From Candidatus Hadarchaeota archaeon (GTDB lineage: Archaea > Hadarchaeota > Hadarchaeia > Hadarchaeales > Hadarchaeaceae), in the NCBI GenBank assembly GCA_964514965.1, contig CAZETV010000001.1:603063-635062 (forward strand): 32,000 bases of DNA, read 5' to 3'. Shown piece after piece: positions 18,225 to 23,323 of the stretch; position 1 is the stretch's first letter; every line of letters begins with the position of its first letter. The position numbers and the translations under genes are program-made. The notes under the pieces are model-generated. The model ran no database searches. It saw nothing but the letters and a program-made list of their open reading frames with translations, and was not told where the DNA came from.

Positions 18225-19019
18225 TTAGACTGCCGGAGAGAGCCAAATAAGTGCTAATAAGATAATTATAATTGCGATTATTAGCACCGCAGAAATCAAA
18301 AAACGATGCGGTCTAGATTCTTTAACTGGAGTTTCAACAGGTTCTATCCGGCTGCCAGTTTCAACAGGCCCTATACGGCGCCCACTTAAAATGTCCAATA
18401 TCTTCCATCTTTTATCAAGCTCTTCTTTTTCTTTTAGTTTCAAATAGGGTGGATACTCTGGGCAAGGATGACCATCTTTTCTCCATTCATCCATTTCTTT
18501 TGGTTTGCCTTTAAATGGTGGAAGCATGGGAATTTTTGGGTTTAGGTGTTTTTCACAAAAATTTTTCCCGCAATATCTGCATACATGAAGTTTTATTTTT
18601 GTTCTACACGGATGATAGGAACAAACGTTTTTTCGTGGGCGATGTGTTTTAGATTTAACACGATGTCCAGAGCTTTTTTTACTTCCATCAACTACAACCA
18701 CTCCGGAAGGGGGACGCCAAATCCCGATTTCGATTTCAGCTTGTGCTTGCGCATGTTTTCCATCATGTTCTATCGAGATTAGGTGGGCCACTTCATGGGC
18801 GGCCACTTTGTCAATTTGATCGAGAGTAAGTTCTTCGAGCCTCTTTTTCCATATGCAAATAATTCTCTCCTCTATGTGGATGTGTGCTATATCACCTGAA
18901 GAGAAGGGACACGGGTTTTCAGTTATAGAAACACGAGGTGGCGGGTCGAGACCTTTCTCCTCAGAACACCTTCGAACTGCGTTTTCGAAGGCTGTCTTTT
19001 TCATCTCAAATAAACCCAT
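18225..19019 (-). CDS. Tail-anchored protein with a minimal HExxH-x5-H zincin-like domain, an AN1-type zinc finger, a 9-aa tandem repeat and a C-terminal TM helix
   Basis: AAHEVAHLISIEH (residues 73-85, nt about 18765-18797). CSYHPC-x8-CRYC-x4-CEKH...HPC (residues 133-186). RIGPVETGS/RIEPVETPV repeat. C-terminal FLISAVLIIAIIIILLALIWL. GGAGAG lies 6 nt upstream of ATG 19019. Confidence 0.6.
   Translation of the reverse strand: MGLFEMKKTAFENAVRRCSEEKGLDPPPRVSITENPCPFSSGDIAHIHIEERIICIWKKRLEELTLDQIDKVAAHEVAHLISIEHDGKHAQAQAEIEIGIWRPPSGVVVVDGSKKSSGHRVKSKTHRPRKNVCSYHPCRTKIKLHVCRYCGKNFCEKHLNPKIPMLPPFKGKPKEMDEWRKDGHPCPEYPPYLKLKEKEELDKRWKILDILSGRRIGPVETGSRIEPVETPVKESRPHRFLISAVLIIAIIIILLALIWLSPAV
18331..18379. 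repeat. Two copies of a 22-nt direct repeat at 27-nt offset inside the zincin-AN1 gene
   Basis: gtttcaacaggttctatccggc (18331-18352) versus gtttcaacaggccctatacggc (18358-18379) match at 19/22 positions. They encode the 9-aa repeat just before the TM anchor. Confidence 0.8.
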
Positions 19020-19213: not shown

Positions 19214-19702
19214 CTAAAAAATAGAGGTTGGCTGTTTTTGCGGTGATGAAGTTTTTACAATCAGTTCCACCCTTTTTTGTCTAAACAATGCAAATTGTGC
19301 TGAGGACCGACCGAGATTTTCCCTTAGTGAATCTCTCAAATAATGCACCTTGTCTGCATCAGTCTTTCCACACAATACAACAATTACTCCCTCATGGTAA
19401 TCTTTTAAGAAACCGTTGACTTGTCCGACTAGACGATCCGCTTGTGCTTTTCCCTTGAGGTTGAATTTGAGTTCTACACCAACTTTTCTATCAATACCTA
19501 TATCTGCCAAATGTCTACCGGACTCTTTTTGGATGGAATGTTGGCGAGACATTCCCATCCAATCAGGCTTATCAAACTCATTTCTCAAGAATTGGATGAG
19601 TTCGCCCCTGTAACCGTTCTCATTGGTGTACTCTTTTTGTAGTTTCCACCCTTTTATAATTGAATAAACCTTATCGAAAATATTTCCAAATACATCCGCC
19701 AT
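19214..19702 (-). CDS. Small hypothetical protein with PD-(D/E)xK (Hjc/Mrr-like) nuclease-type motif arrangement
   Basis: From ATG 19702 the product is 162 aa. It has a helix with Glu (GELIQFL), then HLADIGIDRKVGVELKF (D67/D71...E77-x-K79), then the helix QADRLVGQVNGF and the strand GVIVVLCG. TTTATATT lies about 35 nt upstream. The track start at 19759 is TTG. Confidence 0.45.
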   Translation of the reverse strand: MADVFGNIFDKVYSIIKGWKLQKEYTNENGYRGELIQFLRNEFDKPDWMGMSRQHSIQKESGRHLADIGIDRKVGVELKFNLKGKAQADRLVGQVNGFLKDYHEGVIVVLCGKTDADKVHYLRDSLRENLGRSSAQFALFRQKRVELIVKTSSPQKQPTSIF

Positions 19703-19829
19703 GACCACCGCCTTGGTTTGATTTTTATTTGATATTTGAAAATATAAAGGTTGTTTCAACTCCCCGGAAAATGTGTACTTTAATTGGGTAATGAGCAGAT
19801 TAGAAAAATTCAGTCTTTTTTAATTTAAA

Positions 19830-20402
19830 CTACTTCTTTAATCGATGATAACCACGGTCTAATTCGCTCAAAAGAATTTTGCCCATATTCATCAATTTTA
19901 CGAATTCATGTTCTGATAATTCTCTTACACCATGGATTGCTTCACTCCGCGCACGCCAAAATGTTTGAGTAAGTATAGCTGAATTACTGTCAATGATGTT
20001 TTTTGAACTCAATGCTGAAACAAGTTCTGACATCGGTTTATATCTTATCCCCGTCAGCCCCAGTTTAGCAGCGATTAAACGCATTCTTTTTTCGATTTCT
20101 ATAGATAACTCTACAAATTTGGCTGTAGGTGTTGTAGCATTTTCCAACATTCTTCTTGTTTCTTTTTCAATTTTAGTTGGAGGCTTTTTCCTTTTCGTAT
20201 ATTCATTGTAAAACTCGGCGCTAAAGAGGGGGGACTTAAACTGTTTAACCCTCGGATGTTGCACGACAATACATACAATAACAATTATGCTTAACGGGAG
20301 TATTGCTTCCCAGTATGTAGTTTGGTGAAAGAGCGGTGGGAAGATTAGGTGTCCAATAAGCAGAGCAAAACAGACAAAAAGTATGCTGTTGATTACGTTC
20401 AT
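19830..20402 (-). CDS. Membrane-anchored (2 N-terminal TM) protein with C-terminal DUF4145/HEPN-like helical domain
   Basis: TM1 is SILFVCFALLIGHLIFPPLF and TM2 is AILPLSIIVIVCIVV. The C-terminal ...SELVSALSSKNIIDSNSAILTQTFWRARSEAIHG... contains R-x4-H. GGTG lies 6 nt upstream of the ATG, which is 21 nt after the upstream stop. Confidence 0.5.
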   Translation of the reverse strand: MNVINSILFVCFALLIGHLIFPPLFHQTTYWEAILPLSIIVIVCIVVQHPRVKQFKSPLFSAEFYNEYTKRKKPPTKIEKETRRMLENATTPTAKFVELSIEIEKRMRLIAAKLGLTGIRYKPMSELVSALSSKNIIDSNSAILTQTFWRARSEAIHGVRELSEHEFVKLMNMGKILLSELDRGYHRLKK

Positions 20403-20423
20403 ATTTGCACCATTAAAATTTAC

Positions 20424-21113
20424 TCATAGAGTTAAAACCTTGTCTCTAATAAAATTCAGATATTCTCTTATTTCGCTATTCGAATAATCTTTAAATTTTT
20501 CATCTCCATGAGCCGCCATAGAACCTAACTGGTAATTGGCCCTTAAGCTGCTTTCAAGAGGTTTTTGGATAATCCCTTTCTGCCTCAATTTGATTATAAC
20601 TTGGTCAAATTTCTTCTCCTCGACTCCTTCCTTTCTGGCGAATTCTCTAACGGTGGTTTCTAAGACAATTCTACCGTAAATCGCTGCCGCTATCCTATGA
20701 CCACTCTCAAGGAACTCAAAAGCTTGTTCAAGCAAATCGCTGAATACCAGAATTTCTCGCTTATAGAATAAATCTTCTGTTAACTCGTTCACCACAGCAT
20801 CTAAAACGTGTTCAAGAATAGCAGTCGCGTTTGCAACATTCTCTTTATAGAATCGGCCACCCCTATATCCAACTTTTTTGCTTATTTCATTCACAAAATC
20901 TTTCAGAAATACAGAGTCTGCGCCAAATCTTAACTTTAGCAAATTGATGGAATCTTGTGACCGTTTTATCGCTCTTGGATATAATTTTACATTTTCAGAT
21001 TGGTTATGAGTAAAATAACTATCTAACTTATCTTCACTGTTTAGTGCCATTGCCAGATTCCTGCCTTCTTTAATAAGATTTGATAGTTTCTCAATTATTT
21101 TTTCATCTCTCAT
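20424..21113 (-). CDS. Soluble all-helical protein with C-terminal DUF4145/HEPN-like domain (paralogous to the C-terminus of the 19830-20402 product)
   Basis: ...GHRIAAAIYGRIVLETTVREFARKEG...FDQVIIKLRQKGIIQKPLESSLRANYQLGSMAAHG... This aligns without gaps over 35 residues to the downstream gene (L-x2-K-x-II-x15-S-x-A-x-HG). Confidence 0.5.
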   Translation of the reverse strand: MRDEKIIEKLSNLIKEGRNLAMALNSEDKLDSYFTHNQSENVKLYPRAIKRSQDSINLLKLRFGADSVFLKDFVNEISKKVGYRGGRFYKENVANATAILEHVLDAVVNELTEDLFYKREILVFSDLLEQAFEFLESGHRIAAAIYGRIVLETTVREFARKEGVEEKKFDQVIIKLRQKGIIQKPLESSLRANYQLGSMAAHGDEKFKDYSNSEIREYLNFIRDKVLTL

Positions 21114-21259: not shown

Positions 21260-23323
21260 CTAATGGTACTCGATTCGCTGGCGAAATTCTTCCTGCTTCC
21301 CAACGTTCCAGTTCTTCACGGGGCGGAAATACCCCACCACGCGAGAGTAAACCTCCGTGACCTTGCCGCAAGAAGGACATTTCGGGTACTCCCCCGGGAT
21401 GAAACCGTGGTCGTCGCAGATGGTGTAGGTTGGCGTCACGGTGAAGTAGGGCAACCGGGTGTTGTGGGAGACCTTGCGGACGAGGTTCATGCAGCTCTCC
21501 CCGTCCTCGAGGCTCTCGCCGAGGAAAATGTGGTGGACCGTCCCTCCCGTGTAGAGCGTCTGCAGCTCCTCCTGGTGCTTCAGGGCCGAAATCAGGTCTA
21601 GGCCGCTGTTGACGGGCAGTAGGGTGGAATTAGTGTAGTAAGGTGCGCGCTCACCGGCAGTTATTATGTCCGAATACTTTCTCTTGTCGATCTTCGCGAG
21701 CCTGTAGCTCACGCCCTCGGCCGGAGTCGCCTCCAGGTTGTAGATGTTGCCGGTCTCCTCCTGGAAGGTCTGGATGCGCCCGAGCATGAACTTGAGAGTC
21801 TTGACGGCGAACTTTTTGCCCTCGTCGGCGGCTATGCTGCAATCGAGCAAGTTCAGGCAGGCCTCGTTCATGCCCACCAGCCCGATGGTCGAAAAGTGGT
21901 TGTTCAAAGTTCCGAGGTAGCGCTTGGTGAAAGGCAGCAGGCCGTTGTCCATGTTTTTCTTCACCCTGTCGCGCTTTGCTTCCAGTGAAATCCGCGACAG
22001 TTCCATTATGTACCCAAGCTTCTCGAAAAACTCGTCCTCGCTCTTGGAAAGGTAACCCAGGCGGGGCATGTTTATCGTCACGACTCCCACCGAACCGGTC
22101 GAGTCTCCCGAGCCGAATAGCCCGCCCGTCACGTTTCTCCTCAGCTCCGCCAACTCGAGACGGAGGTGGCAACACATCGAGCGAACGTCACTCGGCCTCA
22201 GGTCGCTGTTGATGAAGTTCTGGAAGTAGGGCAGCCCGTACTTCGCGGTCATCTCGAACAGCGCCGACGAAATGCCGTTGTCCCACTCGAAGTCCTTGGT
22301 CAAATTGTAGGTGGGTATTGGGAAGGTGAAAGGTCGCCCGTTCATGTCGCCTTCCATCATGACTTCCATGAGCGCGCGGTTTATCATCCCCATTTCTTCC
22401 GTGTATTCCTCGTAGGTGTTCTCGCCCAGCTTGCCGCCGATTGTCACGTGCTGGCCCGCGAGGTCCTCCGGGACGGTCAGGTCGAGCGTGATATTAGTGA
22501 ACGGCGTCTGCCCGCCCCAGCGCGAGGCGATATTGAGGTTGAACACGAAAGTCTGCATCGCCTGCTTTATCTTTCTGTAGTCGAGCCCATCCTTGCGAAC
22601 GAAAGGTGCGAGAAGTGTATCGATGGAATTGAAGGCCTGCGCTCCGGCCCACTCGTTCTGCAGGCTGCCTATGAAGTTCGCCATTTGGAGCAGAGCCGTG
22701 TCGAGGTGGGCTGGGGGCCTTGACGCGACCTTACTGGAGACGCCGTTGAACCCCTCCGCTAAAAGCTGGTTGAGAGACCAGCCGGCGCAATAGCCTGTTA
22801 TCCCCATGCCCAAGTCGTGGACATGGAAATCTCCGTGAACGTGCGCATCCGCAACCTCCATGGGGTAGACCCTGTCGAGCGTGTAGTTCGCAATTACCGA
22901 GCCAGCGATGTGAAGCAGCAAGCCCGAAAGAGAGTAACCCACATTGCTGTTCTCTTTGACCCTCCAGTCCTGCATGCCCAGATAATCATCAACTATATTT
23001 TCGACTTCGAGGAACGTGGACTTGAGTTTCCTCATCTCTTCGTGCTGCTTTCGATAGAGGATGTACGCCTTGGCGGTCCTCGCATGACCTCGCTCGATCA
23101 AGACTTTTTCCACCACGTCTTGAATATCCTCAACGTTCGGGATTTCGCTGGCGTATTTTTCTTCCAAAACTTTTACAACTTCATTAGACAACCTTTCTGC
23201 TATTCTTCTGTCTCGCCCACCGACCTCGACCGCAGCCGCAAAAATCGCATTGATGACGCGCTCTTGGTCGAAATCCACTATCCTACCATCGCGCTTGCGC
23301 ACTTTTTTGATGATCGCGCTCAT
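21260..23323 (-). CDS. nrdD: Anaerobic ribonucleoside-triphosphate reductase (class III RNR), with N-terminal ATP-cone
   Basis: ATP-cone KVRKRDGRIVDFDQERVINAI. Catalytic core motifs around SMCCHLRL. C-terminal Zn ribbon CDDHG...CPSCG. Glycyl-radical motif YSRVVGYFRPV. Confidence 0.94.
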   Translation of the reverse strand: MSAIIKKVRKRDGRIVDFDQERVINAIFAAAVEVGGRDRRIAERLSNEVVKVLEEKYASEIPNVEDIQDVVEKVLIERGHARTAKAYILYRKQHEEMRKLKSTFLEVENIVDDYLGMQDWRVKENSNVGYSLSGLLLHIAGSVIANYTLDRVYPMEVADAHVHGDFHVHDLGMGITGYCAGWSLNQLLAEGFNGVSSKVASRPPAHLDTALLQMANFIGSLQNEWAGAQAFNSIDTLLAPFVRKDGLDYRKIKQAMQTFVFNLNIASRWGGQTPFTNITLDLTVPEDLAGQHVTIGGKLGENTYEEYTEEMGMINRALMEVMMEGDMNGRPFTFPIPTYNLTKDFEWDNGISSALFEMTAKYGLPYFQNFINSDLRPSDVRSMCCHLRLELAELRRNVTGGLFGSGDSTGSVGVVTINMPRLGYLSKSEDEFFEKLGYIMELSRISLEAKRDRVKKNMDNGLLPFTKRYLGTLNNHFSTIGLVGMNEACLNLLDCSIAADEGKKFAVKTLKFMLGRIQTFQEETGNIYNLEATPAEGVSYRLAKIDKRKYSDIITAGERAPYYTNSTLLPVNSGLDLISALKHQEELQTLYTGGTVHHIFLGESLEDGESCMNLVRKVSHNTRLPYFTVTPTYTICDDHGFIPGEYPKCPSCGKVTEVYSRVVGYFRPVKNWNVGKQEEFRQRIEYH

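Follow-up and report, generated by a model that had tools for sequence, protein, structure and literature searches.

Here we report that two adjacent genes in a 32,000-nucleotide stretch of the genome of a Candidatus Hadarchaeota archaeon (contig CAZETV010000001.1, positions 603,063 to 635,062; the whole stretch is referred to below as the window) encode distantly related proteins of the HEPN ribonuclease (RNase) superfamily, and we argue with moderate confidence that each is a HEPN conflict gene in its own right, both lying in a variable islet by nrdD. Gene A (20424-21113, minus strand) is an open reading frame (ORF) encoding a soluble protein of 229 amino acids (aa), in which a helical N-terminal domain is followed by a C-terminal DUF4145/HEPN domain; gene B (19830-20402, minus strand) is an ORF of 190 aa encoding a membrane-anchored HEPN protein. 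An initial annotation of the same DNA had proposed that the two form a two-component design, with a soluble sensor or regulator paired to a membrane-tethered effector. That proposal fails a survey of co-occurrence, in which the genes were found together in four related contigs only, and it is at odds with the discordant synonymous divergence (dS) of the two genes. The adjacency of A and B is real within this narrow clade, but it is facultative, being local, recent and dispensable.

The four contigs in which A and B adjoin are the window, L009/L022, L024 and L010 (homologous loci are given L numbers here), and in these related contigs A is 76-79% identical to the A of the window; over the adjacent pair as a whole, identities run from 69 to 79%. 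Beyond them we examined 16 distinct A loci, all of which are without B: L011/L028 (87% identity), L002-4 (77%), L032 (75%), L031 (68%), L005, L006/L012 and L013-L020. In addition, no B-family gene was found anywhere in five A-bearing genomes, nor was the B family found in 301 genomes of the class to which one A-bearing genome belongs. B likewise occurs without an intact A. In L033, where B is 86% identical to that of the window, only the last 17 codons of A lie upstream (512-562), with GC-rich unrelated sequence ahead of this remnant; in L008/L023 the upstream gene encodes an unrelated helical protein of 154 aa and overlaps the start of B; and one distant relative of B stands alone, the gene upstream of it being on the opposite strand. 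Measured against L009 and L010, A shows a dS of 1.1-1.4 and B one of 0.32-0.36, a 3- to 4-fold gap, and the ratio of nonsynonymous to synonymous divergence (dN/dS) stands at about 0.1 in A and at about 0.45, or 4-fold higher, in B (0.23-0.46 over the B comparisons; about 0.1 for A against its relatives). Since the dS values of A and B are discordant against the same contigs, the two genes have different histories. For an obligate A and B system we thus found neither co-occurrence across lineages nor a shared history.

The close spacing of the two genes in the window was found to be peculiar to it among the loci compared. As the initial annotation had correctly described, 21 nucleotides (nt) separate the TGA of A from the ATG of B (20403-20423, minus strand), and a Shine-Dalgarno-like GGTG (20408-20411) lies 5 nt ahead of the ATG of B. 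This GGTG is part of the motif TAAATGGTG[C/T]AAATATG, which is conserved in the 4 homologous loci whose upstream region is complete. A comparison of loci showed that in L009, L010, L024 and L033 the spacer is about 120-140 nt long and carries T-tracts behind A, with a TTTAAAT box ahead of B present in the spacers of L010 and L033. Relative to these four loci, a spacer of some 100-120 nt is gone from the window and 21 nt are left. On the sequence, A and B are therefore probably a single transcription unit in the window, created by this spacer deletion, and the transcript would end at a T5 tract (19804-19808, minus strand), a candidate archaeal terminator that can be read 22 nt past the stop of B. 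A and B also share one reading frame in the window, with the TGA and 7 sense codons between them (20400-20426). Readthrough of the stop codon from A into B was considered and rejected as unlikely, because in L009 and L010 the two genes occupy different frames.

The characterization of A and B as paralogous DUF4145/HEPN-like proteins was borne out in part. Gene A passes the Pfam model for DUF4145 (PF13643) with 24.6 bits, the gathering cut-off being 23.1, over residues 130-221 (20451-20726, minus strand), and the match covers profile positions 2-86 of 88. DUF4145 is part of the HEPN assemblage, Pfam clan CL0291 (PMC3710099). We identified 71 homologues of gene A at 43-100% identity, 23 of which carry a precomputed PF13643 match. 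The AlphaFold model of A is all helical (predicted local distance difference test score, pLDDT, 90.7), and every Foldseek match to it at a probability of at least 0.9 is a HEPN protein (6m6w, 5yep, 1wol, 1o3u, 2q00 and 2hsb; probability 0.97-1.0, TM-score by target up to 0.67, E 0.14-0.8). Profile and model together support the assignment of A as a DUF4145/HEPN-clan protein with an all-alpha HEPN fold. The N-terminal domain of A (residues ~1-112; 20778-21113, minus strand), for which the model has helices H3-23, H35-63, H68-77 and H90-108, is without a Pfam match and is conserved across the A family, as well as in a homologue carried on Acinetobacter plasmids. Records of the A family derive from Methanosarcinales, Methanolobus, Nanoarchaeota, Pacearchaeota, Aenigmatarchaeota, Sedimentisphaerales, Thermodesulfobacteriota and Acinetobacter plasmids, and gene A matches the phage protein family phrog_1305 of the PHROGs database (E 7e-10). 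The A family is horizontally mobile and spans archaea and bacteria.

In contrast to its fold, the active site of A is degenerate. The corresponding helix reads R191-A-N-Y194-Q-L-G197-S-M-A-A-H202 (20508-20543, minus strand), and R191, Y194, G197 and H202 each form an invariant column in an alignment of 57 A sequences. Alignment of hidden Markov models (HMMs) pairs the LGSMAAHG of A with the iRNkivHg of the B family, such that G197 occupies the position of the Arg of the Rx4H motif (R152 in B) and S198 that of the Asn. The initial annotation was thus right to regard the Arg as displaced in the soluble protein, and the Acinetobacter plasmid homologue, which reads DIRNNAAHGD in the same columns, retains RNNAAH. 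The catalytic motif of DUF4145 is conserved in about 80% of the family (PMC3710099), and in RAZR, a DUF4145 RNase that has been studied experimentally, the catalytic pair is R146/H154 (PMC13017515). Gene A does not carry the catalytic Arg and His of DUF4145 as a pair: H202 is kept, but the residue at H minus 8 is Y194 and the Arg of Rx4H is replaced by G197. The A subfamily has thus lost the canonical Arg-Asn (now Gly-Ser) and kept a strictly conserved alternative set of residues. A is either non-catalytic or dependent on a shifted Arg.

Gene B combines a membrane anchor with a HEPN domain of more canonical appearance. Its two transmembrane (TM) helices, which the initial annotation had recognized, were located by a hydropathy scan at residues ~4-24 (20331-20393, minus strand; AlphaFold helix H2-20, with a conserved GHLIFPPLFHQ) and ~29-48 (20259-20318, minus strand; AlphaFold helix H28-48). 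Basic residues (HPRVKQFK) follow the second helix; the positive-inside rule thus predicts a cytoplasmic location for both termini and for the C-terminal domain. The HEPN domain, delimited by the family HMM, spans residues 87-189 (19836-20144, minus strand; pLDDT ~87-94). Within it, E104 of the EIE motif of helix 1 (20091-20093, minus strand) is a nearly invariant Glu that aligns with E152 of gene A, and R152-S-E-A-I-H157 (19932-19949, minus strand), correctly given as RSEAIH in the initial annotation, constitutes the HEPN motif. B therefore has the Rx4-6H pattern of HEPN proteins, including a polar residue behind the Arg, and the earlier reading of its spacing as that of the HEPN RNase motif is confirmed by a family consensus of RNxxxH and by its alignment to the RNRLVH of HepT.

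Close homologues of gene B number only 4; when 1.84 billion cluster representatives were searched with a profile, 138 B-family relatives came up at E <= 1e-3, and ten representatives that were looked up were all singleton or two-member metagenome clusters. The consensus of the family is EIEk..R...FWxIRNxxVHG, in which H157 is invariant and R152, N153 and E104 are each conserved at 90% or more. RN is found in 118 of 142 B-family proteins, with RS or RD in a few others; among the 5 close B sequences S153 is peculiar to the window, the other 4 carrying Asn. At least one predicted TM helix precedes the domain in 121 of the 142 proteins (two in 57), and the membrane anchor is a trait of the B family. 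Pfam matches among 59 B relatives were to DUF4145 (10, E < 0.01), HepT-like (9), HEPN_RiboL-PSP (9), HEPN_Apea (5) and HEPN_Swt1 (2). Searched against the PDB, the B-family profile matches the HEPN toxin 7ae9 best (E 8e-4), and the alignment pairs RNkiVH with the catalytic RNRLVH. Structural comparison agrees, the top Foldseek match of the B model being 2hsb (probability 1.00, TM-score by target 0.69, E 0.036), with 2q00, 1wwp and HepT ranking next; this model was built on a 7-sequence alignment, because the B-family alignment drew only 7 proteins among 5.8 billion. Gene B itself has no Pfam match, and for DUF4145 none even at E up to 10, one close homologue reaching E 0.16, and neither A nor B has a match in NCBIfam or PADLOC. 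No relative was found in a scan of viral contigs, a BFVD fold search gave no meaningful match, and tblastn of gene B against plasmids found nothing. These profile relationships place B in a rare, unannotated family of membrane-anchored HEPN proteins that lies between DUF4145 and HepT in sequence space.

The relationship between A and B was found to be distant. The gapless alignment of 35 residues on which the initial annotation relied does exist (A169-203 versus B124-158, 8 identities, BLOSUM62 score 26), but it is not significant alone: of 1000 shuffled versions of B, 20% yield a best 35-mer that scores at least as well. A direct BLASTP of A versus B gave E = 0.40 in another register, and a shallow profile comparison of B (5 sequences) with A gave E 0.074. 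With deeper families (59 B-family versus 57 A-family sequences), hhalign aligned B100-174 on A148-222 over 72 columns at E 1.2e-4, which confirms the register of the 35-residue match. Furthermore, an HMM of the C-terminal domain of B, run over all 7638 six-frame ORFs of the genome, recovers gene A (E = 0.0019), and a HEPN protein of 224 aa from an Acinetobacter plasmid matches both HMMs (64.9 bits for A, 23.9 bits for B). On this sequence evidence A and B are distant homologues within one superfamily, with the plasmid protein bridging the two families; they are not close paralogues, and while A passes PF13643, B is a HEPN protein by profile and fold without a DUF4145 match. The same B-domain HMM also picked out (E 0.003) another ORF of the genome, C1:551681-552265 on the minus strand, for a soluble, HEPN-like protein of ~180 aa, IELIIGIEEDINK...LITERNKWAHG, with the E...RNxxxH signature.

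The genomic setting of the two genes has an accessory character. The genome that holds them is archaeal, 1.28 Mb in size and Hadesarchaea-like, its closest named record being a Hadesarchaea metagenome-assembled genome (MAG). Nucleotide identity to this MAG is 90% across nrdG, nrdD and A; the similarity stops exactly at the stop codon of A (window 20426), and past A the genes of the MAG differ from those of the window. The A-B pair has a GC content of 36.4%, versus 48.3% for the genome, which is the 1.3rd percentile of 1.3-kb windows. In a survey of 66 genomes of the phylum, B was present in one (this genome) and A in three, all of one genus, and one A locus lies amid Mrr, PLD-nuclease and NOV_C genes. 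Being sporadic, AT-rich and located in a variable region by nrdD, A and B are accessory or horizontally acquired genes, and theirs is the distribution of mobile accessory, conflict-type genes. A scan of the window revealed no tRNA gene and no convincing repeats flanking the islet, and 15 proteins flanking A loci showed no neighbour family in common.

On the observed domain identities, motifs, topology, distribution and linkage pattern, we infer RNase activity, a role in defence and independence of action along the following lines. B would dimerise via its HEPN domains and, when triggered, cut RNA at the inner membrane face as an effector of abortive-infection or toxin type. A would be self-contained, with a sensor domain and a HEPN domain of atypical site, and would work alone, either in the manner of RAZR and other defence proteins that join sensor and HEPN in a single chain, or as a HEPN protein that is non-catalytic. 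An obligate two-gene system, in which A as a dead-HEPN sensor would bind the HEPN domain of B and either inhibit it in an antitoxin-like manner or switch on the membrane RNase after sensing infection, could explain why the two genes lie on one strand with a 21-nt gap and a conserved Shine-Dalgarno-like motif, and are adjacent in four contigs. Their homologous HEPN domains could heterodimerise, the catalytic Arg is absent from A with RNxxxH kept in the B family, and the gene upstream of B in L008 is a weak match for the N-terminal domain of A (hhalign, E 0.017). We nevertheless regard such a system as unlikely, since A is solitary at all loci examined beyond the small clade, the closest genome included, B-family genes are missing from five A-bearing genomes, B persists intact beside a 17-codon stump of A, and dS differs 3- to 4-fold between the two. 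The spacers of the relatives also speak against it, with T-tracts that are terminator-like and, in two of them, a TTTAAAT box that is TATA-like, as does the invariance of the motif residues of A in lineages without B, from which it follows that A has a function of its own. A bolder form of the same idea, namely a new archaeal abortive-infection module in which a dead-site sensor HEPN protein (A) heterodimerises with and gates a membrane-tethered HEPN RNase (B), the A-less and B-less loci being decay products or variants with other partners, seems to us very doubtful.

The remaining alternatives concern what the proteins do rather than whether they act together. Neither A nor B might be an active RNase, both serving as ligand-binding or scaffold modules or representing decaying cargo; the substitution of G197 for Arg throughout the A subfamily, the S153 that sets the B of the window apart from its 4 close homologues and the non-catalytic nature of several HEPN families (PMC3710099, Table 1) would be consistent with this. 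We consider it decidedly unlikely, given that both ORFs are intact and under purifying selection, that R152 and H157 are kept in B (RS or RD being seen also in a few other family members), and that R191, Y194 and H202 are invariant in 57 A sequences, which argues for a functional site. A housekeeping role, with B as a membrane-associated factor of RNA processing or quality control and A as an unrelated neighbour, is highly improbable: membrane HEPN proteins have been proposed as RNA processors at the membrane (PMC3710099) and B is under purifying selection, but B occurs in only 1 of 66 genomes of its own phylum, where it is clearly not a core gene, sits in the 1.3rd GC percentile of its genome and in a stretch not shared with the nearest relative, and the representatives of its family that were looked up all came from singleton or two-member metagenome clusters.

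Several observations weigh against the reading of A and B as two independent conflict genes. The 21-nt gap in the window implies that they are co-transcribed there. At the loci with an upstream region, the gene directly preceding a close B homologue is always A, what is left of A, or one for a small helical protein, so that the pairing is not random within the clade. L033, being a short Logan contig, could be chimeric rather than a real rearrangement. HEPN enzymes work as dimers, and the degenerate site of A would fit a regulatory partner. The profile and Foldseek comparisons, proposed in the initial annotation as a check of DUF4145/HEPN similarity, did return HEPN matches for both proteins, with high Foldseek probabilities but weak E-values (0.036-0.8 over the A and B models). 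Furthermore, the PADLOC-DB 2.0 defence models gave neither protein a match at E up to 1, and the B of the window may be weakened by the Ser that replaces a near-invariant Asn beside the Arg.

Both proteins were compared with known systems. Like A, RAZR (PD-T7-4; PMC13017515) is a single polypeptide in which a non-catalytic N-terminal domain precedes a C-terminal DUF4145 HEPN domain, and A is in addition sporadic and mobile in distribution. RAZR differs in having a zinc-finger N-terminal domain and the catalytic pair named above, whereas the helical N-terminal domain of A belongs to no family, Tyr194 and Gly197 stand at H minus 8 and at the Rx4H Arg, and the invariant Arg191 lies further up the motif helix than the equivalent of RAZR R146. 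Another counterpart is the 'HEPN domain-containing protein' WP_005065062 of small Acinetobacter plasmids (NZ_CP133710 and 11 others), a full-length homologue of A with which it shares the two-domain layout (positions 4-214 of the A HMM, E 1.4e-21, 29% identity); this bacterial protein keeps the canonical DIRNNAAHGD where the A subfamily has LGSMAAHG. In one of these plasmids (NZ_CP133710, locus L034, 2889-4016), a hypothetical protein of 133 aa with a hydrophobic C-terminus is encoded 52 nt upstream of the A-like gene, and a RelE/ParE-helix-turn-helix pair adjoins. In L005 (3599-3994), the gene 6 nt upstream of an A homologue of 60% identity encodes a protein of 132 aa that begins with a TM helix and that, by HMM, is unrelated to B.

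For B, the initial annotation knew of no described system with its architecture. This was too strong, as Anantharaman et al. had in 2013 predicted membrane-associated HEPN proteins of bacteria, some of them DUF4145-like, and had proposed that they cleave RNA at the inner membrane face (PMC3710099). These proteins resemble B in joining TM segments to a cytoplasmic HEPN domain with an intact Rx4H. The three groups described comprise a single TM with a WP signature, a single TM behind a helical domain, and HEPN-2TM-Zn-ribbon (PMC3710099); B differs from them in having an N-terminal hairpin of two TM helices followed by HEPN, no WP signature and an archaeal host. The HepT (DUF86) toxins of HepT/MntA type VII toxin-antitoxin systems (7ae9, 6m6w, 5yep) share with B the minimal four-helix HEPN fold and the alignment of RNxxVH on RNRLVH, but identity is only ~10-15% and B is membrane-anchored; an MntA-type nucleotidyltransferase domain was found neither in A or B nor in the two downstream genes, so the pair lacks the partner that defines HepT/MntA. 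AF_0298 (2hsb) and SSO P95883 (2q00) are minimal archaeal HEPN proteins, of which 2hsb is both the top structural match of B (0.69) and the HEPN match of highest TM-score for A (0.67), the match of lowest E for A being HepT 6m6w; they are, however, small soluble proteins with neither TM helices nor an extra N-terminal domain, at 10-17% identity. A HEPN-TM immune system encoded by a phage-inducible chromosomal island (PICI) is named in a review (PMC12948488), the name joining a HEPN domain to a transmembrane component.

Two proteins previously classed as hypothetical, from an archaeal phylum of which little is known, are thus assigned to the HEPN RNase superfamily, and our analyses delimit two groups that are absent from current domain libraries. 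One, a subfamily of DUF4145, is marked by a catalytic Arg-Asn that has given way to Gly-Ser, and in it a different set of Arg, Tyr and His is invariant; the other is a rare HEPN family, anchored by two predicted TM helices, with a canonical E...RNxxxH site. Either is a sensible candidate for an antiviral or toxin function in archaea, where few such functions have been tested. The two genes also illustrate that a short gap between related genes, seen in a single genome, does not suffice for calling a two-component system.

Further observations were made on the surroundings of the pair. The nrdD gene (window 21260-23323) is mostly 56-59% GC versus 48% for the genome, with a lower value at its 5' end, and looks foreign or strongly codon-biased. 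In the nearest relative, L011 (5683-9005), four different genes lie between A and a flavodoxin-like gene, among them those for a protein of 318 aa and an M10-like peptidase; the counterpart of this stretch in the window holds MarR, a MATE exporter and three small genes, and the region is a variable hot-spot. The 318-aa protein of L011 (ending KARHFLAHD) and a Cys-rich protein of 298 aa in L017 were considered as HEPN/DUF4145 candidates and dropped, there being no Pfam or hhalign support for either. The next gene downstream of B in the window (19214-19759, probable start ATG at 19702; 162-181 aa) is preceded by a Shine-Dalgarno-like GGCGGTGG and gave no sequence match in Pfam, NCBIfam, PADLOC, PHROG or the PDB. 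A TATA-like box, TTTATATT (19741-19748, minus strand), can be read from the sequence ~40 nt ahead of the ATG at 19702, and the gene starting there therefore probably has its own promoter. Within the same AT-rich stretch, window 18225-19019 encodes a protein of 264 aa with weak matches to zf-AN1 (E 4.8e-4), WLM and SprT-like families and a hydrophobic C-terminal tail, possibly a zincin that carries a zinc finger and is tail-anchored.

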